Position numbers and translations under genes: made by a program
Notes under the pieces: generated by a model
The model's database searches: none
What the model saw: the letters and a program-made list of their open reading frames with translations, nothing else
What the model was told of the DNA's origin: nothing
Assembly: GCA_050115495.1 (NCBI GenBank)
Contig: JASFQK010000004.1
Span: forward strand, 96,001-160,000
Length of the DNA stretch: 64,000 bases
DNA from: Phycisphaerae bacterium
GTDB taxonomy: Bacteria; Planctomycetota; Phycisphaerae; UBA1845; Fen-1342
Direction of reading: 5' to 3'
Shown: one piece after another, positions 1 to 21,741 of the stretch
Layout of the letters: every line of letters begins with the position of its first letter
Position numbering within the stretch: position 1 is the stretch's first letter

Positions 1-2154
1 CTCGGGTGTATTCCACGCGTCTGTCGCATGGCAGGCCGCGCAGTACGCCGGACCGCCGGGCATGCTCGGCAGCCACCCGGTCGAGAAGTCCTGCAGGCGA
101 TTGCCATGGCCTACCATGTCGTACGCCCCGCCCTCCTGTACGACGTACAGGTCGCGGGCCGCGTGGATCTTGTGGATCATCACCTTGAAGTCGATGGTGT
201 CCGCCGCCGGATCCTGCGTTCCCGAACCGGGCGTCGGCAGGTCTTCGGCACCGGCGGTGTGGCACACGACGCAGTTCTCGACGCCGCGCCGCGTGTTGCC
301 GTGGAAGCGCAGATCACCGTGGCAGTCGTTGCACTTCGCGTCGGTCACGAAGCCAGGATACGCCGCCGCCGTCCCCGCCGAGCCGACGCGGATCGCGTAC
401 ACGCCCGGCATCGACGTGTCGCGGTACGTCGTCCCATCCAGCGTGAACTGGCGGTACGCGTAGACCATCACCGTGTAGCTGCCGGCGCCGAGCGCCCGCC
501 CGCTCAGCTCGCCCCAACCGTCCGCGTACGTGAAGTCCGCCGAGTCATTGAGCGGAGCCGGATACGTCGCCGGAATGGCGTCCGGGCTCGTATACGTGAA
601 CGGTCCCGTGCCCGTCGTCGGCACGCCCCCGGCGCCCTTCAGGCTCACCGTCGACGTGCTGCCGGCGGGGATGATCTTCTGGTAGTTCTCGACCGGGCCG
701 GCGATGACCATGTTCACCGTGTAGTCGCTGATGTCGACCGCGGTGCCGCTCTGATCCAGGATCTGGAACGTAACCACCGGCGTGTCGCCGACCGCGAAGA
801 AGCCCGACCCGCTGTTGCCCGTCACTGACTGGATGACCACCTGCGGGTCGACCGCCAGTGTCGGGTCGATGGCCGGCGGGACGTGCACGGCGGCAACGCC
901 CCACGTCTGGTTGGCCCCGTGGCAGTACGTGCAGGACCCGTCCGGCGCCGCATGGGTGATGCCGCCCGGTTCCGTCCGGTACGCTGCATCAGAGAGCTGA
1001 TCCTTCGTCAGCGTGCCGTTGGCGACAGCGGCGTTGTCCGGATCGAGGATCGTGCCCGCAGTGAAGTCGATGTCGTCGTGGCAGGTCTGGCACTGCTTCC
1101 GCACCAGGTTGCTTTCCGAGTAGATCTCGGCTTCCTGCGTCGCCCCGCCGTGGCAGGCCTGGCAGTTGCGCATCTGCTCGTTGAAGCCGGTGCCGCCCGG
1201 CATGAACGGGAACGCGATCTCGGAGTAGTCGTGGACAGACTCACCGTAGCCGATGACCTCGTAGTGGTACGGGTCCGCCCCGTTGGCCGTGGCTGCGACC
1301 TCGCGCAGCTCTGCCCCGCGGTGCAGCCGGTGGATCAGCTCGGAGAACTCGATCGACACGCCCGTCGTCGCCTTCGCCGCGTCGCTCGAAGTACGGTCTT
1401 CGGAGCCGGCGGTGTGGCACAGCACGCAGCCGGTGACTTTGTAGCGGTTCTCGCCGTGTGCCGAGAGCTCCGCGTGGCACGCGTTGCAGTTCTCTTGCAG
1501 GACGAGCTGCCGCGGCGAGACCGTGGCTGCGCCGATGGCGAAGTCGGCCGTGACGTCGCCGGCCTTGCGGACGCTGGCCCCATCGACCGTGAACGTCCGC
1601 CGGGCCTCGATGCCCACCGTGTACGTTCCATCCATGAGCGCGTCGCCCGTCATCTCACCGTCCGCCGTGCCGAACGCCGCCGAATCGTAGTACGGAGCGG
1701 CGTAGACGCTGGGCATGCCGTCGGCGAACGTATACGTGTAGGAGCCGTCGTCGTTGACGGTGACGCTGTCCGCGTCGCCCTCGGGCTCAATGACACGCTG
1801 GTAGTTGCTCGCCGGCCCGGACACGTAGATGGAGAAGCGGTCGAGATCGTCGAAGTCGATCGTCTCGCCGTCGTCGTCTTCGAGCGTGAACGTCACGCTG
1901 AACGCGCCGCCGGGCGTCACGGCAGCGCCGCCGTTCACGGCGGTGACGGCGACGATGGTTTCCGGCGGCGTGGCGCCTGCGTCGAGACCGGCCGGACCCG
2001 TCGGACCCTGTTCACCCGCCGGGCCTTCCGGCCCTTCCGGGCCTTCCGGGCCTTGCGTCGCCAGGTCCAGCGGACAGCCGCCCAGCCCACATAGCACCAC
2101 CACGGCGAGTCCCAGGATCCCGAGGCTGCGCCATCCCGTCATTACGCGCGCCAT
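1..2154 (-). CDS. OmcA/MtrC-family multiheme c-type cytochrome lipoprotein (probably decaheme; 3' end beyond left edge)
   Basis: Hand translation from ATG 2154 (RBS GAGGAG): MARVMTGWRSLGILGLAVVLCGLGGC lipobox, then a collagen-like GPEGPEGPEGPAGEQGPTGPAG. Heme motifs CNACH, CVLCH, (IHRLH), CQACH, CQTCH, CTYCH, then a second beta-domain and CNDCH, CVVCH, (MIHKIH), CAACH. Two-fold layout typical of MtrC/OmcA; 8 CxxCH visible. Missing from the ORF track because there is no stop in the window. Confidence 0.9.
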   Translation of the reverse strand, partial: MARVMTGWRSLGILGLAVVVLCGLGGCPLDLATQGPEGPEGPEGPAGEQGPTGPAGLDAGATPPETIVAVTAVNGGAAVTPGGAFSVTFTLEDDDGETIDFDDLDRFSIYVSGPASNYQRVIEPEGDADSVTVNDDGSYTYTFADGMPSVYAAPYYDSAAFGTADGEMTGDALMDGTYTVGIEARRTFTVDGASVRKAGDVTADFAIGAATVSPRQLVLQENCNACHAELSAHGENRYKVTGCVLCHTAGSEDRTSSDAAKATTGVSIEFSELIHRLHRGAELREVAATANGADPYHYEVIGYGESVHDYSEIAFPFMPGGTGFNEQMRNCQACHGGATQEAEIYSESNLVRKQCQTCHDDIDFTAGTILDPDNAAVANGTLTKDQLSDAAYRTEPGGITHAAPDGSCTYCHGANQTWGVAAVHVPPAIDPTLAVDPQVVIQSVTGNSGSGFFAVGDTPVVTFQILDQSGTAVDISDYTVNMVIAGPVENYQKIIPAGSTSTVSLKGAGGVPTTGTGPFTYTSPDAIPATYPAPLNDSADFTYADGWGELSGRALGAGSYTVMVYAYRQFTLDGTTYRDTSMPGVYAIRVGSAGTAAAYPGFVTDAKCNDCHGDLRFHGNTRRGVENCVVCHTAGAEDLPTPGSGTQDPAADTIDFKVMIHKIHAARDLYVVQEGGAYDMVGHGNRLQDFSTGWLPSMPGGPAYCAACHATDAWNTPE

Positions 2155-2232
2155 TGTTGATCTCCTCACCGGTTGTTGACTTGGCCCAGTGCGTGAATAC
2201 CAGAGATGCGTCACATCCTTCGGCTCGCGTTC

Positions 2233-2260
2233 ATATTACCGCTTCGCCGCGCGCACGCAA
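2233..2260 (-). promoter_or_regulatory. possible sigma70-type promoter of the mtrC-like gene
   Basis: On the minus strand TTGCGT-16 nt-TAATAT, about 80 nt upstream of the ATG. Confidence 0.3.
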
Positions 2261-2359
2261 GCAGAATGCTCTTCTGAACTGCATGTTTCGTCGCCCATCC
2301 CCCATTGAGGTGAGTGCTATCCCCCCAACTGGTGTCGGAAACTCTCGCGCCGCGCGTCG

Positions 2360-3007
2360 TCAGGCCAGATGTCGTCGCACCGCCTGGCTCACCGCCGCCG
2401 CCCGCGACGTGACGCCCAGTTTGCGATAGACCTTCTTGAGATGCGAGCGAATGGTGGACGTGGCCACCCCCAGCGTTTCCGCCATCTCCTCATTCCGCTG
2501 CCCCGTTCCCAGCAGCCGCAGCACCCGCAGCTCCTGCGCCGTCAGGGCCGTCTCCGGCGGCGGCACCTCCGACCGGGCCGTCAGGTCCAACAGTCGCTGG
2601 GCCACCTCGTTCGTCAGCTCCACCCGGATGTTGCATTCGCTGGTGACGTCGCAGAAGAGCAGGGCCCGGCCGATCTCCCGCCCGTCGTCGTCCACGTACC
2701 GCGTGGCGTTCACCTTAAGCGACAGCCGCTCGGGCCATTGCACTGTCACATCGCCCATGACATTACCGTCGGCCTGCCCGGCTTCCTGCCAGAATGATGC
2801 CAGCCGCAGGTCTTTGAGCAGGGCCGGCAGCGGCTGGCCGCGACACGTCTCGCCCGGAGCTCCCAGCACCCGCTCTGCCGTCCGGTTCAGCCACACGACC
2901 TTCCCCGCCCCGTTCGTGAGAATCAGTCCCACACACAGGCCGGACAGCGCCTGCGTGACCAGGCAGTTCTCCAGGCACTCGCTCTGCAAGTCCTCCACTT
3001 GCCGCAT
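2360..3007 (-). CDS. PAS-domain LuxR-family transcriptional regulator
   Basis: N-terminal PAS-like GLILTNGAGKVVWLNRTAERVLG; C-terminal LuxR HTH LTAQELRVLRLLGTGQRNEEMAETLGVATSTIRSHLKKVYRKLGV. Confidence 0.9.
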   Translation of the reverse strand: MRQVEDLQSECLENCLVTQALSGLCVGLILTNGAGKVVWLNRTAERVLGAPGETCRGQPLPALLKDLRLASFWQEAGQADGNVMGDVTVQWPERLSLKVNATRYVDDDGREIGRALLFCDVTSECNIRVELTNEVAQRLLDLTARSEVPPPETALTAQELRVLRLLGTGQRNEEMAETLGVATSTIRSHLKKVYRKLGVTSRAAAVSQAVRRHLA

Positions 3008-3340
3008 CAGCAGACTCCGCGGGCCATGTTGTCTATCCCGGGCCGCGGGCCCATCGCCCGGCCTGCCCCGGTCCAGAGGAATCGCCCCCCAACGTCACCG
3101 TCGCGGCCCAGACGCCGCCTCGCTCGATGTGTGGATACTCCCGACATGCACCACTCTCTCCCGTAGCATAGCGCTCGGCGGCCCCATGAGCAATACATTC
3201 CGGGCCCCTGGTGTCCGCCCCGGCTGGGCTCATCCGCCGGCGGCAAAGAATGCTCCTGTGCGGGCGACCGGGTTTGAATTGCTCGGCCTCGCCTGTAGAA
3301 TGCCGTTCCCAACTCCGGCGAGCCAAGGGCCGTGTGGCAC

Positions 3341-5260
3341 ATGAGCAGTCTTCCGCCCGCAGTGTCGAGATCCGACCGCCGCGCTGTAGACGTCCGGCCG
3401 TCCCGTTGCGACCGCCTGCGCTGCGGCGCCGCCGTGCTGCTGCTCGCGGGTCTGCTGGCCGGCGTGGCCCGTGGCGACGATCCCGACAACTGCCTCCTGT
3501 GCCATCAGTACCGCGGCCTTGGTCGCTACGATGCCGCCACCGGCGTCTATCATCTCTACGCCGTCAATCCCGCCATCGACCGGCAGCACCTCGGCCCGCA
3601 TTCCCGCGTGGCCTGCACGGCCTGCCATCGGCGTGAAGAAGTCGGTGTCGTGCCGCACCAGCCGGTCACGCCCGTCAACTGCACGCAGCGCTGCCACCTG
3701 CCCAGCACGACGGACATGGTCCGCGAGTTCAGCCACGCCAACGTGGCCGACATGCTCACCCGCAGCGTGCACTCGCCGGAGCTGTTGGCCGGGCTCAGCT
3801 TCACGGGCGGCCCGCTGCTCGGCGCGGGCCAGTCCTTCTGCCTCTATTGCCACGATGAACCGGTCTTCCGCGGCGCCGGCGATCCCGGTCGGACTGTCTG
3901 CCGCGTCGGCGAGCATGCTTTCGACCGCTGCGACGTCTGCCACGGCTCGCAGATCCCCACCGATGCGCCGTACTACTTGCGCCACGTCGCCTCGCGGTTG
4001 CAGCGAGCCCGGCCGCCGCTCGAAGCCGCCCAGATCTGCGCGGTTTGCCACAGCGACCCGCACGTCATCGCCGGCCGTCTGCCCGACACCGTCGCCAGCT
4101 TCGTCCGCAGCTTCCACGGCAAGGCCGCTCTGCTCGGCGAGACGACCACGGCCGATTGTGTCTCCTGCCACGTGCCCGCCGGCGCCAATGCCCACCTGAT
4201 GCTCAGCCGCACGGACCCGCGGTCGGCGACGCATCCGAACCACGTGGCCGATTCCTGCCGCAGCCTCGACTGCCACCCCGGCGCCGACGTCCGCCTGGCC
4301 GCCGCCGCTGTGCACCTGAATCTCTCCGAGGCACGCGGGACGATCGAGTTCGCCGTCGCCGCCGCGTTTATCCTGCTGACCATCTTCACCTTCGGCCCCT
4401 CGCTGGCGATCGCCCTGCTCGAATTGGGCCAGATCGTCATTGGCCGTCACTATCCGGCGGGGCACCAGACGCTCGTCCTGACCCAGGCCGTCCTGCGTCA
4501 TCCCGACGGCCCGCGCCGCCTCCAGCGCTTCACCGTGAACCAGCGCGTCCAGCACTGGATTCTCGCCGTGCTGTTCACGCTGCTCGCCCTCACCGGCTTC
4601 CCCATGAAGTTTGCCGACCAAGCCTGGGCCAAGTCGGTCATCGATACGTTCGGCGGGCTCAGCATGGCCCGCACGATCCACCATTGGGCCGGCCTAGCGC
4701 TCGTCACCGGTCTGCTGGCTCACCTGCTGTATGTGGCCGGCACGCTGCTCCAGCGCTGGCGTACGCGGATGCCCGACGGCAGTCGCCGCGGCCTGATCGG
4801 CACGCTCTTCGACCTGCCCATGTGGGTCTCGCCGCGCGACGGCGTGAAGATGCTGCTGCTGCTCGGCTATCTCGCCGGCCTGCGGCGTGCTCCGCCGACC
4901 TTCGGCCGCTTCAGCGTCAAGGAGAAGTTCGAGTACATCGGCGTGTTCTGGGGCACGATCCTGCTGGGCATCACCGGCATCATGCTTTGGGGCGAGCAGT
5001 TCACCTCCCGCTTCGTCAGCGGCCGCGTGCTCAACATCGCCCTGATCGCCCACACGTACGAGGCGTTCCTGGCGATCATCCACGTCGGCATTCTGCACAT
5101 CTGCAACGTGATCTTCGCCCCCAACGCGTTCCCGCTCTCGCTGGCCACGATTACCGGAGCCACGCCCGTCGCCGAACTGGCCGAGAACCACAGCGAATTC
5201 GTGACCGAGGCCGCCAGTGACCTCGGCGTGGAGATTGAAAGTGATGGCCGGCACCACTAG
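3341..5260 (+). CDS. multiheme cytochrome c fused to FdnI/HydC-type cytochrome b (CbcL-like quinone oxidoreductase)
   Basis: Signal peptide, 6 CxxCH plus CTQRCH and CRSLDCH, a TM helix, then RFTVNQRVQHW..LTGFP, TIHHW, RFSVKEKFEY..VFWG and AHTYEAFLA..ILH, typical of a diheme cytochrome b. Confidence 0.85.
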   Translation: MSSLPPAVSRSDRRAVDVRPSRCDRLRCGAAVLLLAGLLAGVARGDDPDNCLLCHQYRGLGRYDAATGVYHLYAVNPAIDRQHLGPHSRVACTACHRREEVGVVPHQPVTPVNCTQRCHLPSTTDMVREFSHANVADMLTRSVHSPELLAGLSFTGGPLLGAGQSFCLYCHDEPVFRGAGDPGRTVCRVGEHAFDRCDVCHGSQIPTDAPYYLRHVASRLQRARPPLEAAQICAVCHSDPHVIAGRLPDTVASFVRSFHGKAALLGETTTADCVSCHVPAGANAHLMLSRTDPRSATHPNHVADSCRSLDCHPGADVRLAAAAVHLNLSEARGTIEFAVAAAFILLTIFTFGPSLAIALLELGQIVIGRHYPAGHQTLVLTQAVLRHPDGPRRLQRFTVNQRVQHWILAVLFTLLALTGFPMKFADQAWAKSVIDTFGGLSMARTIHHWAGLALVTGLLAHLLYVAGTLLQRWRTRMPDGSRRGLIGTLFDLPMWVSPRDGVKMLLLLGYLAGLRRAPPTFGRFSVKEKFEYIGVFWGTILLGITGIMLWGEQFTSRFVSGRVLNIALIAHTYEAFLAIIHVGILHICNVIFAPNAFPLSLATITGATPVAELAENHSEFVTEAASDLGVEIESDGRHH

Positions 5261-6404
5261 CCCCGGCGGCAAAGGCCCCGCGAAGCGTCGCGGTCTCACC
5301 CGCGCCGCCCTGCGCGGCTTCGGCCGCTTCGCCGGCCAACTCATCCAGCGCGCCTACGCCCTGGCCATCATCGCCGTCGTCGGTTGGCTCAGTTGGCGCG
5401 CCTTGTATTACCTCATCGCCTCGCTGATTCTTCCCGGCGGCATTCCCGTTCAGATCGGCGAATTGCCCCTGCGCCTCGACGAGCAGACGCTCCGCACCGA
5501 ACCCACCAAGTGGGCCGGCATCACCGCCACGCAGAACCCGCGTGCCCCGCTGGCGCACTATCACCGCCTGGACGGCTGGTTCCAGATCGACCGCGCCAAC
5601 GACTGCACCCGCGCCGGCTGCCACGAGCCGCTCCCGCATCAGCGCAGTGCGGCGCTACGCTCGTTCCTGAACATGCACGCCACCACGCTGAACTGCACCG
5701 TCTGCCACCTCGAGCCGGCGGCGCGACCCGTACCGCTCGTCTGGTATACGCTCGACGATGGCCGCGTGACCGGCCCGCCCGCACTGCTGCGTGCTTACGA
5801 CTGGGTCACCGGTCCCGCCGGCGAGGCCGCCCTCGAACATCCGACCGCCGCCGACCAGGATGAGATCGTTGCGCTCCTGCGACAGGCCGCCGACGAGGCC
5901 GACGGTGAGCCCGCGCTCCTCCGCCTCGTCGAGCGCACCCGCGCCGTCCGTCCCGACGGCGACGCCTTCCGCACCGCCCTTACTAATCTTCGCCGTGATT
6001 TGCCCGCCCACTTCCGCGGCGACTACGGCGCGAAGCTCGCCCCTCGTGGCGACGACAGCGGTCAACCGTTGCTGCACCTGCCCGCCACAACCGGCGCCGC
6101 CGAGGAGTTCCTCGCCGCCGGCGAATCGCTGAGCGCGGACCAGCGCCAGGCGCTCGTGACCCGCATGCACGAACCGCTCCGGCCGGCCGGCCCGCTCTGC
6201 ACGGCGTGCCACACGCCGGACGGACCGCTCCTCGACCTCGCCGGCGCCGGCTATCCGCCGCAGCGTCTGGCCACGCTGTACGGCTTGTCCATCGCCCGGG
6301 CGATCGAGGACGTCGCTACCGGCCAGCCGCTGCACATGCCCACGTTCGTTGTGCCGCCCGCGTTGCCGGCCAGTGCCCCGGCATCCTCACAGGTCGAGCC
6401 GTGA
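5244..6404 (+). CDS. membrane-anchored triheme c-type cytochrome
   Basis: N-terminal TM helix; CTRAGCH, CTVCH, CTACH; overlaps the upstream stop. Confidence 0.75.
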   Translation: MAGTTSPGGKGPAKRRGLTRAALRGFGRFAGQLIQRAYALAIIAVVGWLSWRALYYLIASLILPGGIPVQIGELPLRLDEQTLRTEPTKWAGITATQNPRAPLAHYHRLDGWFQIDRANDCTRAGCHEPLPHQRSAALRSFLNMHATTLNCTVCHLEPAARPVPLVWYTLDDGRVTGPPALLRAYDWVTGPAGEAALEHPTAADQDEIVALLRQAADEADGEPALLRLVERTRAVRPDGDAFRTALTNLRRDLPAHFRGDYGAKLAPRGDDSGQPLLHLPATTGAAEEFLAAGESLSADQRQALVTRMHEPLRPAGPLCTACHTPDGPLLDLAGAGYPPQRLATLYGLSIARAIEDVATGQPLHMPTFVVPPALPASAPASSQVEP

Positions 6405-9400
6405 GTCGTGCATCGCGTCATCGTCGATATGCGATCGCGTGCCTGCTGTTGGCCGCATCGTCTGTCGCCGCGCTCGCCCAGACGGCTCCGCCGTTCATCG
6501 CCGAGCCGGCGCTGATCATCACGCTCGAAGGCACCACGCCGATGCGGCTGCCGACCGCGGTGGCCGTCGGTCCCGACGGCACGATCTTCGTGTGCGACGG
6601 CGTCGCCGACCGCGTCCTTTGCTTCTCGCCCGCGGGCGACTTGCTGAGCGAAATCCGCGACGTCGGCGGTAAGGCTCTCTCCCGCCCCACAGGCGTGAAG
6701 GTCGACGCCGCCGGTTTGCTCTGGATTGCCGACACCGGCCACGGCCGCGCCGTTGCTCGCGGGCCCGACGGCCGCCTCGTCCACGAGTTGTCTTGGCCGT
6801 CCGATGCCGCCGCGCCGGCCGACGTCACCGACGTCGCGATCAGCCCCGACGGCACGGTCGCCTGGCTCGTCGACAACGATGCTCACCGCATCGCTCGCTT
6901 TGACATTGCCGCCGGAACCGCGCGTCTCATCGGCGAGCCGGGCCAGTCGCTCGGCCAGTTCTACTATCCGTTCATGCTGGCGACCGGTCCTGCCGGCGAT
7001 CTCTTTGTCAGCGAATCACTCAACGGTCGTGTGCAGATCCTCGCCGCCGGCGGTCGCATCCGCGGCCGCCTCGGCGCATTCGGCGCCGACCCCGGCCAAC
7101 TCTTCCGCCCCAAGGGCCTCGCCGTCGACGCCAACGGTAACATCTGGGTCGCCGACGGCATCTTCGGCGTGATCCAGATCTTCCAACCGACGGGCGTTCT
7201 GCTCGACATACTGCGCGACACGGCGGGCAACCCACTGAAACTCGAGACCCCGTGCGGCATCACCCTCGACGGCGCCGGCCATCTGTACGTCGCCGAGCCC
7301 TGGGCGAATCGCGTCCGCCAGTTCAACCTCACGGTCGATCCGCGGCCGATCCCACCCTGGCCCAGTCGCCCGTCGACGAGCCCACTCACCGCGCAGCCGC
7401 GGGCCTGTGCCGTCTGCCACCTGGAATGGGTCGAGCCGCTGGCCCACGGCGTGGCGACGCCGCTAGCGTCGGTTCCGCCGGACACGGCTGCCGAGCCCAT
7501 CGCCAGCGACCCGCGGATGTGCCTGTCGTGCCATGACGGTTCGGTGCGTGATTCGCGACGCCGCGTGTGGGCAATGGCCGGCCATCACGTCGGCGTACCG
7601 CCGCCCGCGGACGTGCCCGTCCCGCGCGACCTACCCCTCGCGCATGGCCTGCTCGCTTGTCGCACTTGCCATACGGCCCACGCCTTGAGCGAGCCCACCG
7701 CCGCCGGCGAGTCCATCATCTTCCTCCGCGTTCGCGAAACTGCCGGCGAACTCTGCACCGGCTGTCACGCGCAACAAATGGCCGGCCCCGCCGCCGGCAT
7801 GCACAAACTCGGTGACATGCCCGGCGATATACCCGCGAGCCTCCTCGCTGCTGGTGGCCGACCCGGCCGCTCGCCTACTGAGCTCGCCTGCCTCACCTGT
7901 CACGCGACTCACGGCGTTACCGGCGAAACGGCCCTCGTCGTTCCGAGCCACTCGCCGGCCATGTGCGCCGATTGCCACGAACTACAACAGCCGCAGCTCT
8001 TCGGGTCCGGTAACACCGCCGGCCATCCGCCGCACCCAACTCTCGCCGCTCACCAGATCGAAGTCATGCAACAAGTCGGTGGCGTACTCGGACCGCAGAA
8101 CACGCTCGACTGCGCCACGTGCCACCAGCCGCACGCTGGCGACGGCGCGACGCATCTCCTCGCCGCACACTTGAAAGTCGACACCATCTGTCGCGAGTGT
8201 CACGAGCCACAGCGCGCGGTGGAAGGCTCGCTGCACGATATACCGCCCGATAACTCCGCAACGCACAACGCTTGCCGTACTTGCCACAACTACCATACAG
8301 ATGCGCGCACGCCGCAGCCGACCGAGCTCGATCCCGCCGGCCATTGCCTGAGCTGCCACCAGCCCGGCCAGCCCGGCGCGGCCCGCGTCCTGGGCTCGCC
8401 GAACCACCCCGAGGTCGCCTGTGCCGGCTGCCACGATCCGCACGAATCGCAGCACGGCCACTTCCTCTCCGCCCCGGCCGGCCAGCTCTGTAGCAGTTGT
8501 CATGAGGAAGAGGCCCGCGTCGCCGGCGGCACGCACGATTGCCTGACCGATTCGAGCCAGTGGCCGTCAGAAGCCGCCAATACGCACGATACCTGCCTCG
8601 CCTGCCACCGCGCCCACGGCAACGAGCAGACCGGCCTCTACCGCCTCGCCGCCGCCGACTCCACCGGCTCAAGTGGCGTATGCCTCTCCTGCCACCCGTC
8701 GGCTGTGCCCGGCGGTCGCGAGGCGCTGGCCCTGGCGCACCCGCTCCCGGCTGCTAGCGTCGCTGCCGAGATGAGTCTTCCGCTCGATGGCGTCGGTCCC
8801 GACCGCCAGATCGCCTGCCGCACCTGCCACGATCCCCACGCCGGCCCCGGCTCCACGACGATGCTCCGCACGCAAGTGCCCGGCGGCGCCGGCGAGCAGG
8901 TCTGTTTCGCGTGCCACGAGGAAACCGCCAATATCCACAGCATTGGCCACGCAGCAGGTTCCCTCCGCGACGCCGGCTTCGCGTCGGAATCGTGCCAGCC
9001 GTGCCACGTGACGCACGCTGCCGCCGACGCGATCGATCCGCAGCTCCTGTGGCCCAAGGCCCTCGCCGAATACGCCGGCATGCCCGACGTCGCCGTCGCC
9101 GACCAGCCGTGCGTTGCTTGCCATCGTGTTGGCGGCCCGGTGACCCCGCCGACCATCGCCACGCATCCCGAGGCCGAGATGCTTAATCTCGAGTCGCCGA
9201 CCTCGCCGGGGTATCTGCCGCTATTCAACGAGCGCGGCGAGGTCGATCCGCAGGGCCACATCGCCTGCCGCACGTGCCACCTGACGCACGGCCGCAGCAT
9301 GCCGGCGGTACTGCCCGCGGAGGTCCGCAACGTCGCCGGCCGCGAACTCCGGGCCCGCTCCTGGCACGTCCGCTCGTTCGGGCCCGGCAACGTCTGCACG

Positions 9401-9505
9401 ACCTGCCACGGGCCCGATGCCCTCCGACGCTTCATGTACTTCCACAATCCCGCGCGTCGCGGCGGGCCGATCGAAGGCGGCGCCCCGCCCGTGCTCGCGC
9501 CCTGA
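6401..9505 (+). CDS. NHL-repeat beta-propeller fused to a 20-heme cytochrome c
   Basis: GTG start in a GTGA overlap; signal peptide ending AALA; NHL repeats (PTAVAVGPDGTIFVCD, PKGLAVDANGNIWVAD); 20 CxxCH counted, many as doubled CxxCHxxH..CxxCH. Confidence 0.88.
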   Translation: MSRASRHRRYAIACLLLAASSVAALAQTAPPFIAEPALIITLEGTTPMRLPTAVAVGPDGTIFVCDGVADRVLCFSPAGDLLSEIRDVGGKALSRPTGVKVDAAGLLWIADTGHGRAVARGPDGRLVHELSWPSDAAAPADVTDVAISPDGTVAWLVDNDAHRIARFDIAAGTARLIGEPGQSLGQFYYPFMLATGPAGDLFVSESLNGRVQILAAGGRIRGRLGAFGADPGQLFRPKGLAVDANGNIWVADGIFGVIQIFQPTGVLLDILRDTAGNPLKLETPCGITLDGAGHLYVAEPWANRVRQFNLTVDPRPIPPWPSRPSTSPLTAQPRACAVCHLEWVEPLAHGVATPLASVPPDTAAEPIASDPRMCLSCHDGSVRDSRRRVWAMAGHHVGVPPPADVPVPRDLPLAHGLLACRTCHTAHALSEPTAAGESIIFLRVRETAGELCTGCHAQQMAGPAAGMHKLGDMPGDIPASLLAAGGRPGRSPTELACLTCHATHGVTGETALVVPSHSPAMCADCHELQQPQLFGSGNTAGHPPHPTLAAHQIEVMQQVGGVLGPQNTLDCATCHQPHAGDGATHLLAAHLKVDTICRECHEPQRAVEGSLHDIPPDNSATHNACRTCHNYHTDARTPQPTELDPAGHCLSCHQPGQPGAARVLGSPNHPEVACAGCHDPHESQHGHFLSAPAGQLCSSCHEEEARVAGGTHDCLTDSSQWPSEAANTHDTCLACHRAHGNEQTGLYRLAAADSTGSSGVCLSCHPSAVPGGREALALAHPLPAASVAAEMSLPLDGVGPDRQIACRTCHDPHAGPGSTTMLRTQVPGGAGEQVCFACHEETANIHSIGHAAGSLRDAGFASESCQPCHVTHAAADAIDPQLLWPKALAEYAGMPDVAVADQPCVACHRVGGPVTPPTIATHPEAEMLNLESPTSPGYLPLFNERGEVDPQGHIACRTCHLTHGRSMPAVLPAEVRNVAGRELRARSWHVRSFGPGNVCTTCHGPDALRRFMYFHNPARRGGPIEGGAPPVLAP

Positions 9506-10025
9506 CGTCGCCGACACGTAGCGCAAAGATTGGCGCCCTGGGCTCTCGAGAATTATCGGGGGAGGGCGACGATGTGCGGGGCATCGGCCGATAGTTCTCT
9601 TTGTGACGGGCGCGTTGGTCTGTATACTGAGATCAAGGTCTCGGGTGGCGGCACACGGACGCCGCGCCTCAATCACCCGGCATATCTGCGCCACCCATGG
9701 ACCGCAAGGACGGCGAGCCACGACAGGAGCCTCGAACGATGATCGCTCGGGCTGTGCGCCGCACGAACGTCCCTGTCGGGCCTGCGCCGGCCGCGAGGTC
9801 ACCTGACGCGGTCCCTCCGGGGCAGGGGGGACTACACGTCAGCGAATCGATGTCGAGCGAGGCCGAGTGCGCGGCGGCGCACGACGTTCCTCGAGTGCTG
9901 GAATGGGTGTGAGGTGTGAGGGAAAAGCGCGAACCCATCCGAATGTCGCGGCGCCCGTGCGGCCAGGTCGTAACGGCTTGAGCGCGGGCAGCGCGGTGTT
10001 CTCAGGAGCAGACACAGTGTTGCCG

Positions 10026-12482
10026 ATGGACCCACGGTCGTCTCACCGCCTCCGCTGTCGGCGCGTCGCGGTGCTATTCGCCGCCGGCCTGGCGCTGGGG
10101 GCGGGCCTGTTGCCGGCACACGCGTCGGATCGCGTGGTGCTGTGCGAAGAGTTCACCAACTACTACTGCGGTTCGTGCGCATTCGCCGGCCCGGCGCTGG
10201 ACCTGTTGTTGGACACGTACCCCGACTCGCTGGCCTTCATCCAATATCAGATATTTGACGCCGAATATTCGAAACCCTGGGGCGACAACCGCTGGGCGTA
10301 CTACGAGGCGGAGTACACACCCGCGGCCATCTTCGACGGCACGGACAAGCTGGAAGGCGCCATCGAGGACCTCGACCAGCAGTACACCATCTACCGCGCC
10401 AACCACTTCCTGCCCGAACGGGCCAATCCCACCGATGTGACCGTCGAGTTCGACAACGTCCTTCAGCTCGGCGGCCCGAACTACCTCGTCGACGTCGCGG
10501 TCAGCGTCGAGCCCGGCGGTGTCGCCAAGACCATGGACGTCTACATCGTCCAGGTCCTCGATCACTGGCCCGACACCAAGCCTTATCACCGCAACGGCTT
10601 CAAGCAGGCCGCCCCCGTGGAGCAGATCACCGTCGGCCCCGGCCAGACCGGCTACGCCCAGTACATCTTCTCCCTCGACGACGACAGCGCCGAGCGCGAG
10701 GAAGACGTCAAGTTCATCGCCTGGGCCCAGCAGCCTGAGCCCGGCTTTCCCGCAGCCGTGTACCAGGCCGCCGTCCGTGTCTGGCCGCTGATCACCATCC
10801 CCGGCGACGCCGATGCCGACGGCTATCCGGACGCCGTCGACGACTGCCCCAACCGCTACGACCCCGACCAGCTCGACAGCGACGGCGACGGGTTCGGCGA
10901 CGCCTGTGACAACTGCGACGAAACCTGGAACCCGGACCAGACGGACACCGATGAAGACGGCTTCGGCGACGATTGCGACACGTGCCCTGTGCTGCACCAC
11001 TACAACCAGGCCGACACCGACGCGGACACCATTGGCGACGCCTGTGACTCGTGCCCCGACGTTTACGCCCCGGCGGGCGTCGACGCCTTCGGCCGCTCGA
11101 TCGGCTGCCTCGACTTCGACTGCGACGTCGATACGGATGACCTGCTGGTGCTGAACCGCTGTCTGAGCGGCCCGGATGACACCACGCCGCCGGCCACTTG
11201 CACGCCGGCCGAGTTCGCCCGCGCCGACGTCGACGACGACGGCGACGTCGACCTGGCCGACTTCGCCCTGCTTAGTCAGAACTGCACCGGACCGCTCATC
11301 AGCCCGGCCACGTACGTCGGTGCGGCCAACTGCGCCGACTGCCACTCCGGCAACCACGCCGACTGGATGCAGACCATTCACGCCACCGCCTTCAGCACGT
11401 TGGTGAATGACGGCGCGGGCGACAACGTCCTGTGCTTCCCCTGCCACTCCGTCGGCTACGGCAAGGCCAGCGGCTTCGTCGATCTGGACACCACGCCCGA
11501 TCTGGCCAACGTGCAGTGCGAGAACTGCCACGGTCCCGGCAGCAACCACTTGAGCGACCCGTACGGTTTCCCGCTGGAGCGGCCGCTCGATGCGGACCTC
11601 TGCGGCGCCTGTCACCAGTCCTGCCACGGTCTGTGCGGTGAGAACCACCACCCGCAGTACGAGCAGTGGTCCGAGTCGAAGCACTCCACGGCCCTCATCG
11701 ACATCCAGTGGCTGCCCGACACCGAACAGGAATGCCTCCAGTGTCACTCCACCGACTATCGCCTCGCTCCGCCCGGTGAGGAGCCGCAGGTATGGGAGGC
11801 CATCTACGACCTCGAGTGCGTCGCCTGCCACGATCCGCACGGCGGCCCCAACGTCGGACAGCTTCGCCTGCCCCCGTACGAGCTCTGCGCCGAGTGCCAC
11901 ACCATGGGCGACGTGATGCCGCCCGACATGCCCGATCAGCCGCAATCCGAAATGCTGCACGGCTTCGGCGGCTTCGCCCTGGACGGCACGCCGCTTAACG
12001 GCCCATACAGCATGCACTGGTGGGGCATCGCGGACGAGTGCGCCGTCTGCCACGTGCACGAGGAGCCGTACGGCGGCCCACAACAGCCGGTGAACAGCGG
12101 CCACCTCTTCGTGCACAACCTGCGGGCCTGCCTGCCCTGTCACACCGAGGAGACGGCCACGCTGCTCGTCGAGGGCATGCACGCCGAAGTGACGCTGCGC
12201 CTGACGCGGATCGCCCGCTACTTCACGCCGGGCGACCCGCTCTACATCGATCCGGCGACGCTGCCCCCGGCGGAGCTGGCCCGCTACGAGATCGCCCGGT
12301 TCAACTATCTGCTGGTTGAGGCGGACCGTTCGTTCGGCTCGCACAACCCCGAGTACGCCCGGGCCCTGCTGGGCGAGACCGAGGCGTTCCTCGACATTCC
12401 GCCAATCCTCGGTCCGGGTGGTGGCGGCGAAGGCCCCGTACCAATTCCCGCCTGCGACTATTACGCGGAGGGCTGCCCGTGA
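10026..12482 (+). CDS. secreted multidomain multiheme cytochrome (Omp28/thioredoxin-like, TSP3 repeats, dockerin-like, c554/c552-like heme domain)
   Basis: Signal peptide ending PAHA; EEFTNYYCGSC; DxDxDGxGDACDNC repeats; DVDDDGDVDLADF; YVGAANCADCH and 9 CxxCH in total. Confidence 0.82.
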   Translation: MDPRSSHRLRCRRVAVLFAAGLALGAGLLPAHASDRVVLCEEFTNYYCGSCAFAGPALDLLLDTYPDSLAFIQYQIFDAEYSKPWGDNRWAYYEAEYTPAAIFDGTDKLEGAIEDLDQQYTIYRANHFLPERANPTDVTVEFDNVLQLGGPNYLVDVAVSVEPGGVAKTMDVYIVQVLDHWPDTKPYHRNGFKQAAPVEQITVGPGQTGYAQYIFSLDDDSAEREEDVKFIAWAQQPEPGFPAAVYQAAVRVWPLITIPGDADADGYPDAVDDCPNRYDPDQLDSDGDGFGDACDNCDETWNPDQTDTDEDGFGDDCDTCPVLHHYNQADTDADTIGDACDSCPDVYAPAGVDAFGRSIGCLDFDCDVDTDDLLVLNRCLSGPDDTTPPATCTPAEFARADVDDDGDVDLADFALLSQNCTGPLISPATYVGAANCADCHSGNHADWMQTIHATAFSTLVNDGAGDNVLCFPCHSVGYGKASGFVDLDTTPDLANVQCENCHGPGSNHLSDPYGFPLERPLDADLCGACHQSCHGLCGENHHPQYEQWSESKHSTALIDIQWLPDTEQECLQCHSTDYRLAPPGEEPQVWEAIYDLECVACHDPHGGPNVGQLRLPPYELCAECHTMGDVMPPDMPDQPQSEMLHGFGGFALDGTPLNGPYSMHWWGIADECAVCHVHEEPYGGPQQPVNSGHLFVHNLRACLPCHTEETATLLVEGMHAEVTLRLTRIARYFTPGDPLYIDPATLPPAELARYEIARFNYLLVEADRSFGSHNPEYARALLGETEAFLDIPPILGPGGGGEGPVPIPACDYYAEGCP

Positions 12483-13426
12483 GAATCTCGCGACGTGATT
12501 TCCTGAAAGCCGCCGCGGCGGCCACCATGGCCGGGCATCTGGCTCCGGCCGCCCTGGCTCAGTTGCAGAAGGTCCTGGGGCGGGGCGGCGGACCGCGGGT
12601 GATCTGGCTCCAGGGTGCCGGCTGCGACGGCTGCGCCATCTCCGCCCTGAACAGCATTCACTACGCGACGATCGACGACGTCCTGCTCAACACGATCGAT
12701 CTACGCTTCCAGAACAACCTCCAGGCCGCCGCCGGCGACCTCGCCGTCTCGGCCATCGAGGGCGGCACCGCCGAGCCCGGTTACATCCTGATCGTCGAAG
12801 GGGCGATCCCCACCGGCGCCGCGGGCAAGTACTGCCGCTTGTGGCCGGGCATGACCATGCTCGACGCCCTGAACACCTACGCCGCCAACGCCAGCTACAT
12901 CATCGCCCTCGGGGCCTGTGCCTGCTTCGGTGGTGTCACCGGCGGAGCACCCAACCCGACCGCCGCCAGCGGTGTCGGCGGGATCCTCGGCGACGATCCC
13001 CGGTTGATCAACCTGCCCGGCTGCCCGGCGCATCCCGACTGGCTGGTCGGCACGATCACCTACCTGTTGACCAACGGGCACGTGCCGCCGGTCGACGCCC
13101 ATCGCCGACCGCTCCAGTACTTCGGCGAGCGCATCCACGACAACTGCTTCAAGCGCCAGAAGCACTGCGGCGAGTTGACCTTCGCCGAGAAGCTCGGCGA
13201 CGAGGGCTGCATGGAGTACCTCGGCTGCAAGGGCAAGCACACGTACTCCGATTGTCCCATTCGCAAGTGGAACAGCAGCGGCCCGCAACAGTACGGCGTG
13301 AACTGGTGCGTCGGGGCGCACAGCCCGTGCCTGGGCTGCGTGAATCCGACTTTCCCCGACGGCATGTCGCCGTTCTACGTGTACCTGCCCGGTGGGAAGG
13401 ACGAGGGTGAAGGCGGCGAGGGCTAG
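12479..13426 (+). CDS. [NiFe] hydrogenase small subunit (group 1, Tat-exported)
   Basis: SRRDFLK Tat motif; WLQGAGCDGC, GACACFGG, PGCPAHP, HDNC..C..LGCKG, WCVGAHSPCLGC; no C-terminal TM helix. Confidence 0.95.
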   Translation: MRISRRDFLKAAAAATMAGHLAPAALAQLQKVLGRGGGPRVIWLQGAGCDGCAISALNSIHYATIDDVLLNTIDLRFQNNLQAAAGDLAVSAIEGGTAEPGYILIVEGAIPTGAAGKYCRLWPGMTMLDALNTYAANASYIIALGACACFGGVTGGAPNPTAASGVGGILGDDPRLINLPGCPAHPDWLVGTITYLLTNGHVPPVDAHRRPLQYFGERIHDNCFKRQKHCGELTFAEKLGDEGCMEYLGCKGKHTYSDCPIRKWNSSGPQQYGVNWCVGAHSPCLGCVNPTFPDGMSPFYVYLPGGKDEGEGGEG

Positions 13427-13494
13427 GGTACGGTCCGGGCCCGATCGCCGGTTGCTGAAGACGAGCTGATGACCTCGCGAAGAGGAACTGAGCA

Positions 13495-14943
13495 ATGCCG
13501 ACCACGATCACGCTTGACCCCGTGACCCGCATCGAGGGCCACCTGGAAATCGAAGTCACCGTGGACGTTGTCCGCGGTCAGCAGCAGGTCATCAGCGCCC
13601 GCAGCATGGGCAAGATGTTCCGCGGCTTCGAGATCATCCTGGCCGGCCGCGATCCGCGCGACGCCGCCATGTACACGCAGCGCATCTGCGGCGTCTGCCC
13701 CGTCTCGCACGCCATGGCTTCGAGCCTCAACCTCGACAACGCTTTCGGCGTGACACCGCCGGACAACGGCCGCATCCTACGCAACCTCGTGCTCGGGGCG
13801 AACTTCATTCAGTCGCACCTGCTGCACTTCTACCACCTGTCCGTCCTGGACTATGTGAACACCACCGGGCTGCTGGACAAGTCGCCCTGGACGCCGCGCT
13901 ACGTCACCGCCGACATGGCCACGGGCGCGAACGCCGCCACGCTCGTCTCGCACTACGTCGCCGCCCTGGCCATGCGCCGCAAGGCGCACCAGATGGGGGC
14001 GCTCTTCGGCGGCAAGCTGCCCTGTCTCGGCTCCTTCGTCGTCGGCGGCTGCACCGAGGCCGTCACCGCCGAGAAGATCGCCGACTTCCGCAGCCTGCTC
14101 ACCGGGCTGCGGTCCTTCATCAACAACGTCTACCTAGCCGACGCCAACACGCTCGGCGACCTGTTCCCGACGTACTTCACGCTCGGCGGCGGCAACGAGA
14201 ACCTCCTGGCCTTCGGCGTGTTCGACCTCGATTCGTCCGGCGCGAACCGGTTTTTCTCGCCCGGCCGCTACGCCGGCGGGGCGTTTGAGTCGATGGATCC
14301 GGCCCAGATCGCCGAATACGTGATGCACTCGTGGTACACGCCCGCCTCGGGGAACCTGAACCCAGCGCAGGGCGTCACCGAGCCTGACGCCGAGAAGCAG
14401 GGGGCGTACTCCTGGCTCAAGGCGCCGCGCTACGCGGACCTGCCTTACGAGCTCGGCCCGCTGGCCCGCATGTGGATCAACCACGACTACACACGCGGCA
14501 TCTCGGCCATGGACCGCATCATCGCCCGCGCCCAGGAAACCAAGAAGATTGCCGACGCCATGGACGGCTGGCTCGACGAACTAACCCCGGACATGTCCGG
14601 CTACGCCACGAGCGAGATCCCCGTGCAGGCCACCAGCGCCGGCCTGACTGAGGCCCCGCGCGGCGCCCTCGGTCACTGGATGAACATCACAGACTCGACG
14701 ATCAGTCGCTACCAGGTCATCACGCCGACCGCCTGGAACGCCTCGCCCCGCGACGACGTGGACGTGCCCGGTCCGATCGAGGCGGCACTGGTCGGCGTCC
14801 CGGTCGCGGATATCGAACAGCCGGTCGAAGTGCTCCGCATCGTGCACACCTTCGACCCGTGCCTGGCCTGTGCCGTGCACATGGTTCGCCCCGGCGAGCG
14901 CGTGCCCGCCAGCCGTGTGCTGCTCCAGCCCGGACTCGGTTAG
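13495..14943 (+). CDS. [NiFe] hydrogenase large subunit (group 1a-like)
   Basis: DPVTRIEGH, RGFE, L1 RICGVCP, EAPRGALGHW, L2 FDPCLACAVH followed by a cleavable C-terminal extension. Confidence 0.96.
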   Translation: MPTTITLDPVTRIEGHLEIEVTVDVVRGQQQVISARSMGKMFRGFEIILAGRDPRDAAMYTQRICGVCPVSHAMASSLNLDNAFGVTPPDNGRILRNLVLGANFIQSHLLHFYHLSVLDYVNTTGLLDKSPWTPRYVTADMATGANAATLVSHYVAALAMRRKAHQMGALFGGKLPCLGSFVVGGCTEAVTAEKIADFRSLLTGLRSFINNVYLADANTLGDLFPTYFTLGGGNENLLAFGVFDLDSSGANRFFSPGRYAGGAFESMDPAQIAEYVMHSWYTPASGNLNPAQGVTEPDAEKQGAYSWLKAPRYADLPYELGPLARMWINHDYTRGISAMDRIIARAQETKKIADAMDGWLDELTPDMSGYATSEIPVQATSAGLTEAPRGALGHWMNITDSTISRYQVITPTAWNASPRDDVDVPGPIEAALVGVPVADIEQPVEVLRIVHTFDPCLACAVHMVRPGERVPASRVLLQPGLG

Positions 14944-14967
14944 CCGCCCCGACGAGAAGGACGGTTG

Positions 14968-15465
14968 ATGCTCGTGCAAAACGGTCAAGACGAACAGACC
15001 GCCACCGACCGCTGCCCCGTCCTGGTGCTCGGTCTCGGCAACATCCTGTTGCGCGACGAGGGCGTCGGCGTGCGCGTGATCGAGACGCTGCGTGAGCGGT
15101 CTCGGCCGGAGGGCGTCGAGTTCTTCGATGGAGCCACCGCCGGCCTCGACCTGCTGGACGTCCTCGCCGATCGGCGGACCGTCGTCGTCGTGGACGCCAT
15201 CGCCGGCGACTACGCCCCGGGCACGGTCCTGCGCCTGACGCCGGAAGACCTGCTGCCGAGCGATCATCCCGGCGTCTCGCTGCACGAGATGGGCATCCTG
15301 GAGACGCTGACCGTCGCCAGACACCTGGGTAATGCCCCGCACGAAGTTGTCATCATTGGTATTAAGCCGTTCGAGGTCGATTACGGCCTGAACCTCACGG
15401 ATGAAATGCAACGCCTGATGCCGGACATCCTGGCCCTGGTGTCGGCGGAACTGGAGAAGCTGTGA
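14968..15465 (+). CDS. hydrogenase maturation endopeptidase (HyaD/HybD family)
   Basis: [29 protein letters not shown] motifs; follows the large subunit. Confidence 0.93.
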
Positions 15466-15509
15466 CGCGCGGCGGAGCCTGGCCGCGAGTCCGCAAGGGA
15501 AGCTTTACG

Positions 15510-16295
15510 ATGAAACCGCTCGCCTTCATCCCGGTCGTGGTCCTGGTAGCGCTCCCGGTGCTCGTGGCTTTGCTTCCGGCGACGACCCCCGTCGCAGTCG
15601 CCGAGCCGGCCTGGGGCCAGAACTGCTTGGCCTGTCACGACTTACTGCAAATAAACCTGCTCAATGTCGTTGGGGCGGACCTCATCGCCGACCCCGACGA
15701 GAGCGGTACCGGCGCCCCGGATCGCGGGCCGCTCCCGGTGTTCCGCGTCGGCCCGGGCGGGAACAAGACCATCCGTGTCGCGGTCTCCGGCCTGATGACC
15801 GGTGATACCTATGCGGTCGAGCTGTTCCGGCTGCGGTTCCCGGGCGTCGTGCAGGGCGGCGAATTGACTTACTCCGGCGATTGCGCCTGGGCCGAGTGGG
15901 GCAATCACGCTAACTACTTCTCCGATCCGGACGTGTCCGCCCCGTGGCAGCCCGGCGCGACCACGCATGAGTTCGACATTCATATCGGCCCCGATGCCGC
16001 GGAAGACTTCTACGACGTGGCCTTCGCCGTGGCTGGCAAGTTCGGCGGGGACGATTCACAGCTCTTCTACGCCGCAGAACACTTCTATATTCAGGTTCAG
16101 GGGCAAGTCGGTGATGTGAATTGCGATGGGACGGTCGACAACTTCGATATCGCGGCGTTCGTGCTGGCGCTAACCAACCCCAGCGCATACGAGGCCCGCT
16201 ACCCGGACTGCGACCGCATGCTGGCCGATATCAACCAGGACGGTCTGGTGGACAACTTCGACATCAGCGCGTTCATCGACCTGCTGACGGGCTGA
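15510..16295 (+). CDS. secreted monoheme (CLACH) protein with C-terminal dockerin-like domain
   Basis: Signal peptide, GQNCLACH, beta-rich middle, [26 protein letters not shown]. Confidence 0.75.
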
Positions 16296-16474
16296 TGGCG
16301 GGGGGGATCGCTGGTTTGGCGCCTGCCGGCGCTAGCTCAGGCGAGTGAAGGCGTTGCGGTTGGAGCAATCTTTGCCTACAATTAATGTCCTGAGGGGCTC
16401 GGGTGGGAAGGCGAGCGTCGGCAGTGTGCGCGGCCGGCGGCCGAAGTGAAATGCCGTCTCAGGAGACCGGATCA

Positions 16475-17560
16475 GTGACCGGACAACGTAGGTGTTGGGG
16501 CCGGCAGGGGGTCCGGGGGTTCACGCTTATCGAATTGCTGGTGGTGGTGGCGATCATCGCCCTGCTGATCTCGATTCTGCTGCCGGCGCTGTCCGACGCG
16601 CGGGAGCAGGCGAAGGCCGTCAAGTGCGGGGCCAACCTCCAGCAAATCGGTCTCGGCCTGCTGAATTGCATGACTGAGAACCAGGATTGCGTGCCCCTGA
16701 TCGACGACGGCGTTGGGTCGCCCTCCGTGGTGTACACTTGGCTCGACGCCCTGTACGACCTGGATTACACCGGGATTGTGGACATCCAGTGGTGCCCGAC
16801 GGACGATCATCGCTCGCCGGCGATGCTGGAGCGGGTCGCCAATGGCTGGAACTTCTCCTGGGTGCGGAAATTCGGGGCGGGGGAGTCCCTGAAGCCGGGT
16901 TCCCGCTCGAGTTACGCGCTGAACTCGCACATCGCCTACAGCCACCCTCCCTATCCGGAGTGCAGCCCGTCGCGCCAGGTCATGGTGACCGACGGGTTCT
17001 GGAACTGGTTCGGGAACATGAGCGCCCACTACACGATGGCGCCGGCGGCGCTGGGCTACTCTGTTCCGGTGCTCGACACCTACGCCGGCTGGCAGGGCGG
17101 CATGATCGGCTTCCGTCATGGGCGCAACCTCGCCACGAACATGGTCTTCCGCGATGGCCACGTGGTGAAGATCACGCCCCGCCGACCGCACAACGTCCGC
17201 GAGTACCGGGATTTCCTGCCACGCAGCGCCACGCGCATGGTGGATACGGCGAAGTACTACACGTGGCTGCCGGGGGAGACGACCACCCGCCTGGACGTCT
17301 TCGGTTACGACCAGCGCTACTCGGAAATCGAAGACTGGATGCCCAACGGAGCGGATCCGCGCTGGCCGCCGTTTTCGACCGGCACGCAGCTTCCACCGAG
17401 CTGGGAGTATCGAGACTGGGGTTCGACCGGCGCCCCCGAGGCCTGCCGGGAGGCTCGTGCCTGGGTCCCATATTACTACCCGCGTGAGCTGAGCCCTGCG
17501 TGGCGGACCGCGAACGGCAAATGGACCAAGCTCCCGTCCAATCCGGATGATCGGAAGTAG
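16475..17560 (+). CDS. prepilin-type N-terminal cleavage/methylation protein (H-X9-DG-like)
   Basis: [52 protein letters not shown] start after AGGAG (ATG 16451 is an alternative). Confidence 0.88.
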
Positions 17561-21541: not shown

Positions 21542-21741
21542 CCTGACGGGGCACGGCCCCGTTGGACGCCGCCGGAGGGCGGCGGTGTGAGTGTGCCCCT
21601 CCCGTCCCGTGGCCGGTCCGACGTCAACGACGCGGACCGGCGACGGGCGGGGCGGGGTGGTTCGGCGAGCAGGGGAAGGGGGGACGGGGATCCCGGGGGA
21701 CGGTCTGGTCGCCGGTTACGGTGACCGAGGAGACGTCCACT

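Follow-up and report, generated by a model that had tools for sequence, protein, structure and literature searches.

A candidate OmcE-type electron conduit beside a hydrogenase cassette in a Phycisphaerae genome

Does a cluster of multiheme cytochrome and hydrogenase genes in a planctomycete form one inherited unit that links H2 oxidation to the quinone pool and to extracellular minerals, or do separately inherited modules lie next to each other? The question is raised by a stretch of 64,000 nucleotides from a Phycisphaerae bacterium (contig JASFQK010000004.1 of assembly GCA_050115495.1), hereafter called the window, which encodes an MtrC/OmcA-type decaheme lipoprotein, a CbcL-like c/b cytochrome, further multiheme proteins and a [NiFe] hydrogenase within its first 16,295 positions. 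A first-pass annotation had proposed a compact conduit leading from H2 through a cytochrome wire to quinones or minerals. Our sequence comparisons support a lineage-wide envelope electron conduit but not a conserved H2-to-mineral unit, and the latter claim should be dropped. We think it probable that the island consists of two independently inherited modules side by side, an OmcE-type kit with a CbcL-like membrane unit and a five-gene hydrogenase cassette, which are adjacent only in the source genome.

Extent and inheritance of the island

The island begins 11.3 kb to the left of the window and spans about 27.6 kb (G000:C4:84671-112295, in the source genome G000) with 87 canonical CxxCH motifs. 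It carries nine of the 14 open reading frames in the genome that have at least three such motifs, and 84 of the 128 motifs contained in them. Positions 1-16295 of the window hold 46 canonical motifs and three atypical ones (a Cx3CH and a Cx4CH in the c/b protein, a Cx4CH in the triheme protein), giving the 49 that had been estimated before; 325 other stretches of 16.3 kb from the same genome contain on average 0.77 CxxCH motifs (median 0, maximum 30). The open reading frame list and family scans returned every gene named in the first-pass annotation as an intact reading frame, in the order and orientation described there (Table 1). The divergent arrangement around a PAS-LuxR gene also stands, but the rightward genes make up two units rather than one, split by 520 non-coding bases. 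We consider an assembly chimera unlikely because a single 36-kb Logan contig from a wetland run covers positions 1-16576 with zero differences and even depth; two other runs yielded just short pieces at low depth. A chimera at the junction of the two rightward units (9505-10026) was rejected on this coverage, with the reservation that the run may be the source sample itself. Recent foreign acquisition of the island was also rejected, as its GC content and its GC content at third codon positions (GC3) match the genome. Rfam gave zero matches, and promoter and terminator scans stayed at chance level, including a promoter-like site at 9601-9628.

The part of the island to the left of the window contains a 12-heme cytochrome, an NHL lipoprotein, a β-barrel, an OmcE-like tetraheme cytochrome and an NHL/8-heme fusion protein. 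The barrel, NHL and 12-heme genes run divergent from the tetraheme gene, which adjoins the barrel gene. Judged by its sequences, this kit is an OmcE nanowire cluster, matching in each of its parts the smallest published one, in which OmcE and a large barrel are accompanied by two multiheme proteins and two propeller lipoproteins and which is reported from five phyla, with Planctomycetota not among them (PMC13712944). A GTDB search with the 12-heme gene gave 392 hits; the best 80 were used to assess conservation and left 79 loci, all of which carry planctomycete titles, many of them Phycisphaerae, in support of a Planctomycetota origin. In the 59 of these loci with at least 5 kb of upstream sequence (20 shorter loci were left out), the NHL gene and the barrel are each present in 58, the tetraheme in 55 and the NHL/8-heme gene in 51. 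The barrel occurs in 26 of 30 genomes of the same order and in 11 of 170 other genomes of the class, and the 12-heme gene was found at E<=1e-100 in four of 250 genomes drawn from the phylum. Among 60 relatives, counted from match tables, 45 have the barrel, 43 a CbcL-like gene, 41 both and 13 neither; the two genes lie at most 20 kb apart on one contig in 18 of the 41, three of them with weaker (26-34%) CbcL-like matches.

The hydrogenase does not share this pattern. Among 67 genomes of the family, 23 encode the hydrogenase, 50 the CbcL-like protein (scored in hydrogenase-bearing genomes at E<=1e-100) and 16 both, where about 17 would be expected by chance. The two genes share a contig in none of these 16 relatives, and the fetched flanks of the cassette in relatives show no conduit gene beside it. 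In two genomes (G002 and G019) the 9-heme gene is cut off by the end of its contig, yet the CbcL-triheme pair there is not followed by the 20-heme gene. The adjacency of hydrogenase and conduit is a local juxtaposition in the source genome, and synteny shows no selection for the pairing. These counts do not support the proposed co-conservation of an H2-cytochrome-quinone/mineral conduit. Synteny across metagenome-assembled genomes of Phycisphaerae is found for the barrel kit with the 12-heme gene but not for hydrogenase and CbcL-like gene, while the more general claim, a planctomycete locus for multiheme electron transfer across the envelope, is supported.

Table 1. Features of the island and its surroundings (positions prefixed G000:C4 refer to the contig of the source genome, all others to the window)
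Feature	Position	Strand	Remarks
Studied window	G000:C4:96001-160000		Genome 5.97 Mb, 92% complete
12-heme cytochrome	G000:C4:84671-86374	-	Left of window
NHL lipoprotein	G000:C4:86371-87402	-	Left of window
β-Barrel, 705 residues, orphan	G000:C4:87399-89516	-	Left of window
OmcE-like tetraheme	G000:C4:89805-90488	+	Left of window
NHL/8-heme fusion	G000:C4:90464-92497	+	Left of window
Octaheme lipoprotein	G000:C4:92540-93853	+	Left of window
OTR-family octaheme lipoprotein	G000:C4:93976-95541	-	TIGR04315 460 bits, cut-off 375
MtrC/OmcA-family decaheme lipoprotein, 775 residues	1..2154 (G000:C4:95827-98154)	-	Extends 174 bases left of window
PAS + LuxR helix-turn-helix regulator	2360..3007	-	Divergent from CbcL-like gene; family scans
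CbcL/MtrH/MtoC-like c/b cytochrome, 8 c-heme motifs + FdnI/HydC-type cytochrome b domain	3332..5260	+	PF01292, TIGR01583; start codon uncertain
Membrane-anchored triheme, 2 CxxCH + 1 Cx4CH, no named family	5217..6404	+	Follows CbcL-like gene in fetched loci
Secreted NHL propeller + 20-heme cytochrome	6401..9505	+	Family scans, motif count
Non-coding gap, 520 bases	9506..10025	.	Boundary of conduit module and hydrogenase cassette
9-heme multidomain protein	10026..12482	+	Omp28/thioredoxin-like (CxxC) + TSP3 repeats + dockerin-like + 9-heme domain
[NiFe] hydrogenase small subunit HydS	12479..13426	+	Three-cluster; twin-arginine (Tat) signal, no membrane anchor
[NiFe] hydrogenase large subunit HydL, HysA-like	13495..14943	+	NF033181 600.1 bits, cut-off 600
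Hydrogenase maturation protease	14965..15465	+	PF01750, TIGR00072
Secreted monoheme protein, C-terminal dockerin-like domain, no named family	15510..16295	+	Family scans

Components of the conduit and of the hydrogenase cassette

The 705-residue orphan is predicted to be a large outer-membrane barrel. A single-sequence fold of low confidence (predicted local distance difference test (pLDDT) 31) was replaced by an alignment-based fold with 126 homologues, which is all-β with about 28-30 long strands, as counted from the DSSP list of the predicted model, at a pLDDT of 89.9. A structure comparison against 48,161 chains returned MtrB as top match (Z score 17.4, root-mean-square deviation (rmsd) 9.1 Å, 427 aligned residues). 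The first-pass annotation had suggested looking left of the window for MtrA/MtrB porin-cytochrome genes, and a large predicted barrel with cytochromes does lie just there. By family models, neither MtrA (TIGR03508) nor MtrB (PF11854) passes its cut-off in the source genome (92% complete), and MtrB does so in none of 61 genomes; the sought Mtr pair is thus missing at this threshold, and what was found is a predicted barrel whose best fold match is MtrB. The sole MtrB_PioB match in the 61 genomes (G027:C9:61397-61594, 19 bits, below cut-off) falls within the barrel homologue of G027, a faint sequence link to MtrB. A GTDB scan with the single barrel sequence gave zero matches. The neighboring tetraheme protein is homologous to the N-terminus of the 12-heme protein, and both found strong matches solely to two OmcE filament structures (7TFS, 9YUQ). 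Its four CxxCH motifs are invariant in 17 of 17 aligned sequences, His-162 and His-202 are likewise invariant, and His-68 and His-88 are conserved in at least 90%; equivalents of these four extra histidines are visible in the alignments with 9YUQ and 7TFS. By analogy with OmcE, the tetraheme protein possibly forms an extracellular filament. Lipoprotein signals of the left-side proteins were read by eye.

Family and motif matches identify the c/b protein as CbcL-like, with N-terminal c hemes and a HydC/FdnI-like b domain containing a conserved His. Its atypical Cx3CH and Cx4CH motifs are invariant in 14 of 14 homologues, an invariant His is located in the membrane half, and a simple hydropathy analysis places five C-terminal segments above threshold, where the CbcL/MtrH/MtoC class has six transmembrane helices. 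A search of plasmids with this protein gave zero matches. An Atlas search with the following triheme protein yielded solely unnamed c7-like clusters with low recognition. The NHL/20-heme protein is likely a periplasmic wire. The loci of G009, G075 and G088 contain a second CbcL-like paralogue of about 1000 residues with eight hemes directly upstream of the first, and the same paralogue is likely present in G001, G005, G017, G072, G082 and G086. An additional 11-heme cytochrome of about 610-640 residues adjoins the 20-heme gene in four loci (L016, L020, L058, L064) and has no match to the island proteins of the source genome.

The MtrC-type decaheme protein is a putative surface cytochrome. Already its truncated form scores 242.5 bits with TIGR03507 (cut-off 209.3), and it matches PF22113 and MtrF (3PMQ, E 1e-9); its lipobox LGGC is followed by a collagen-like linker. 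Secretin genes were found in the genome. MtrC-family genes exceed the cut-off in 10 of 61 genomes, source included, and in 6 of 67 family genomes; in the relatives fetched they lie within the conduit locus in six of nine and elsewhere in three. MtrC is thus a patchy accessory. Its repeated occurrence beside a non-MtrB barrel suggests that surface cytochromes may be swappable among conduit types. A double MtrC-type protein of 1606 residues and 18 hemes is encoded at G054:C1 ~704500-709400 (L028/L029). The slot between the barrel operon and the CbcL unit is variable, being occupied by cytochromes of the OTR, c554/OcwA or MtrC type together with the PAS-LuxR gene. In G023, G037, G009, G013, G019, G087, G075 and G088 this regulator gene lies upstream of the CbcL-like gene(s).

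The hydrogenase cassette is predicted from its signals to be exported. We take HydL and HydS to be a group 1a (HysAB-like) hydrogenase. The L1 and L2 Cys motifs of HydL are intact, and its nearest Protein Data Bank entries are periplasmic [NiFeSe] large subunits (E 5e-132). A [NiFeSe] identity was ruled out, since the motif DPCLACAVH lies in an open frame with Cys in place of selenocysteine (Sec), and NF045518 gives 534 bits against a cut-off of 780. Of the 26 loci fetched, 20 have all five genes in the order 9-heme, small subunit, large subunit, protease, monoheme; the remaining six comprise two short contigs, two with the monoheme gene upstream and two more distant enzymes. A complex prediction of HydL, HydS and the monoheme protein gave no answer (score 0.02). 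The 9-heme domain is related to the cell-surface cytochromes OcwA and OmhA (6I5B, E 1e-38; 6QVM, E 6e-27; PMC9250108).

Several observations accompany the cassette. In the 9-heme protein (~11601-11636, residues 579-590 of the long reading frame) the motif CxxCH-x-S-CH-G-x-C is invariant in 21 of 21 homologues; the two extra Cys and the His directly after heme 4 may mark a disulfide or else a tenth heme site of atypical form. For one monoheme-dockerin homologue (L168, G059:C87), the 9 kb of sequence retrieved contain no match to the hydrogenase, so that outside the family this protein is not always tied to the enzyme. Genome-wide, 132 open reading frames match the dockerin-like motif, including those at 15510-16295, 18245-21541 and 21562-24708 of the window, and there are two cohesin matches; the domain is maybe a lineage-specific anchoring or sorting tag. 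Proteins with prepilin-type N-methylation signals (16403-17560 and 24960-25844), presumably of the planctomycete DUF1559 kind, flank large dockerin-bearing secreted proteins. Three further [NiFe] hydrogenase large subunits are encoded at G000:C1:234357, C7:11078 and C51:11568.

Proposed electron path and alternatives

The conduit likely moves electrons from menaquinol outward through the envelope. Menaquinol would donate to the b hemes and eight c hemes of the CbcL-like protein, from where electrons could pass to the anchored triheme and NHL/20-heme periplasmic wire, on to a cytochrome at the barrel, either the 12-heme or the NHL/8-heme one, and finally to the OmcE-like tetraheme, which is possibly a filament. 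Swappable lipoproteins (the MtrC-type decaheme, OTR-type and c554-type octahemes) may decide whether Fe(III)/Mn oxides, humics or a partner cell act as acceptor. Without a cytochrome b of its own, the hydrogenase would reduce the 9-heme and monoheme proteins as its dedicated partners and possibly feed a shared cytochrome pool, as an optional add-on outside the conserved conduit; in the source genome the c/b protein could carry hydrogenase electrons into the quinone pool. The genome contains menaquinone (Mqn) and ResB genes, and we found no heme-copper oxidase in it at 92% completeness. Outward flow is favored because of this absence and because an MtrC-type protein is present. Elsewhere in the genome, at G000:C41:5982-12179, a 23-heme protein has as neighbors an NrfD-like membrane protein with six hemes and other membrane-redox reading frames, and G000:C38 encodes an apparent alternative complex III (names assigned by eye).

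Several points weigh against two separate modules with outward flow. The relatives compared are kin and not independent samples. Of the 41 genomes that have both the barrel and the CbcL-like gene, 23 do not show the two close to each other; many of these are fragmented drafts, but the distance is 224 kb in G007 and 2.5 Mb in G030. The label CbcL-like rests on families and motifs rather than on an alignment to CbcL of Geobacter sulfurreducens, and the barrel matches MtrB at 10% identity with a large rmsd, TonB receptors following at Z 14. The hydrogenase is present in four of six MtrC-bearing family genomes compared with 23 of 67 overall, albeit in small numbers, and a distant hydrogenase (26% identity) in G012 lies about 7 kb from a CbcL-like gene. 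The direction of flow is not fixed by sequence, because similar kits serve electron uptake in Tenderia (bioRxiv 10.1101/2022.05.06.490989) and Desulfovibrio ferrophilus (PMC5815863) and CbcL homologues are proposed to work in both directions (PMC6295460). What cytochrome filaments do physiologically is contested, even for Geobacter (PMC11077965).

It is unlikely that the island is a selected, co-regulated unit in which H2 electrons enter a cytochrome wire toward quinones and minerals, with the b domain of the CbcL-like protein replacing the cytochrome b of the hydrogenase and MtrC as terminal reductase. The same-strand adjacency on one contig, the Tat signal and missing anchor of HydS, the FdnI/HydC matches of the c/b protein, and the G012 and MtrC-bearing genomes mentioned above would fit such a unit. 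Co-occurrence at chance level and the lack of any shared contig among the 16 relatives argue against it, as do the gap between the units and the 7 of 23 hydrogenase genomes without a CbcL-like match at E<=1e-100. H2-derived electrons conserve energy only on entering the quinone pool; periplasmic H2 oxidation wired straight to the outside moves no charge across the inner membrane, an argument of general bioenergetics against the direct route.

We regard as similarly improbable an inward conduit, as proposed for uet and DFE, in which the barrel would admit electrons from partner cells, from reduced humics or from minerals containing Fe(II), and menaquinone would be reduced by the CbcL-like protein. 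Uptake would suit the makeup of uet, where a 28-strand barrel occurs with a tetraheme, an undecaheme and two NHL proteins; in addition, D. ferrophilus takes up electrons via NHL-linked multihemes, and MtoC-type homologues have been proposed as quinone reductases. The uet model, however, relies on cbb3 oxidases, which belong to the heme-copper class not found here; triheme-c7, cupredoxin and peptidyl-prolyl isomerase (PPIase) genes of uet were not seen among the island genes scanned, and MtrC-type proteins are associated with reduction (bioRxiv 10.1101/2022.03.26.485925).

It is quite improbable that the cytochromes serve mainly soluble substrates (by reducing nitrogen or sulfur oxyanions through OTR- and OcwA-like proteins, or by thiol redox chemistry through the Omp28 CxxC domain), electron storage or a biofilm filament without mineral respiration: an OTR family match over cut-off, the homology of the OcwA/OmhA clade to nitrite and sulfite reductases (PMC9250108) and the disputed filament function (PMC11077965) point that way, but this would leave unexplained why so large a barrel is conserved in tight linkage with OmcE-like cytochromes, and why a full MtrC-type decaheme is present.

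If the two-module reading with outward flow holds, a conduit nearly universal in one order would make these Phycisphaerae, described mainly as degraders of complex carbon (PMC11266412), candidates for the reduction of Fe(III) or humics, or for electrical partnerships, in wetlands, sediments and reactors, and would extend OmcE-type nanowires to a sixth phylum. A bolder extension, which we hold to be rather doubtful, is that a whole order of uncultured Phycisphaerae are so far unrecognised electroactive anaerobes building OmcE-type nanowires fed by a CbcL-like quinol oxidase, with MtrC-type decahemes plugged into a non-Mtr barrel and with a third of the family using a cytochrome-b-less hydrogenase and dockerin-tethered cytochromes to drive H2-fuelled flow at or near the surface.

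Comparison with known systems

Parts of this picture have been reported before. A mixture of Shewanella and Geobacter parts and the presence of CbcL in planctomycetes are already published (PMC6295460; bioRxiv 10.1101/2022.03.26.485925): CbcL homologues in Planctomycetes (2 of 138) were listed, with mtrH placed within an mtrABC cluster (PMC6295460), and Phycisphaerae with many DFE or CbcL hits have been noted (bioRxiv 10.1101/2022.03.26.485925). The FeGenie categories DFE, Omc and porin are listed for a set of metagenome-assembled genomes including UBA1845, according to a figure legend (PMC10732223), and the consulted parts of PMC11266412 and PMC12954529 show no such cluster. In the literature searched on Planctomycetota, with subscription journals, figures and supplements outside the search, we found neither an omcE cluster nor this hydrogenase cassette, which with its dockerin-bearing cytochromes looks undescribed.

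The omcE cluster of Desulfuromonadia (G. sulfurreducens OmcE 7TFS, D. soudanensis OmcE 9YUQ) shares with the island a tetraheme in which four additional His accompany the four CxxCH motifs, as well as two multihemes, two β-propellers and one large β-barrel. The island differs in that one propeller is fused to an 8-heme domain, the genes form two divergent operons, the kit is linked to a CbcL-like unit and variable MtrC/OTR lipoproteins, and no adjacent glycosylation block was seen. The uet cluster of 'Candidatus Tenderia electrophaga' and DFE_448-465 of D. ferrophilus likewise combine a tetraheme, a large barrel (UetC with 28 strands), two NHL proteins and an 11-12-heme cytochrome; the UetDEG c7 trihemes, the UetF cupredoxin and the UetB PPIase were not seen in the island, its host lacks a detected heme-copper oxidase, and uet and DFE are proposed for uptake. 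The occ cluster is similar in parts (bioRxiv 10.1101/695007). With Shewanella MtrCAB/OmcA the island shares a decaheme lipoprotein over the TIGR03507 cut-off and a barrel whose best fold match is MtrB, whereas MtrA and MtrB over cut-off are missing and MtrC is an accessory. The proposed mixture of Shewanella and Geobacter parts therefore holds for the MtrC-type and CbcL-like proteins, while the conduit itself is, judging from its gene content, of the OmcE/Uet/DFE type rather than the Shewanella type.

In proteins of the CbcL/MtrH/MtoC class, a HydC/FdnI-like b domain is preceded by 3-23 c-heme motifs (PMC6295460), and the island protein has the same multiheme c domain, b domain and conserved His; it differs from CbcL in having eight hemes, two of them atypical, instead of nine, and in its downstream neighbors, which are an anchored triheme and, in most cases, an NHL/20-heme gene.

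The periplasmic HysAB hydrogenases of Desulfovibrio, which use cytochrome c3 as partner, provide the nearest solved large subunits and share with the island enzyme a Tat-exported small subunit and the lack of a cytochrome b. The island enzyme in contrast has Cys in place of Sec and is flanked by a dockerin-bearing OcwA-like 9-heme protein and a dockerin-bearing monoheme protein.

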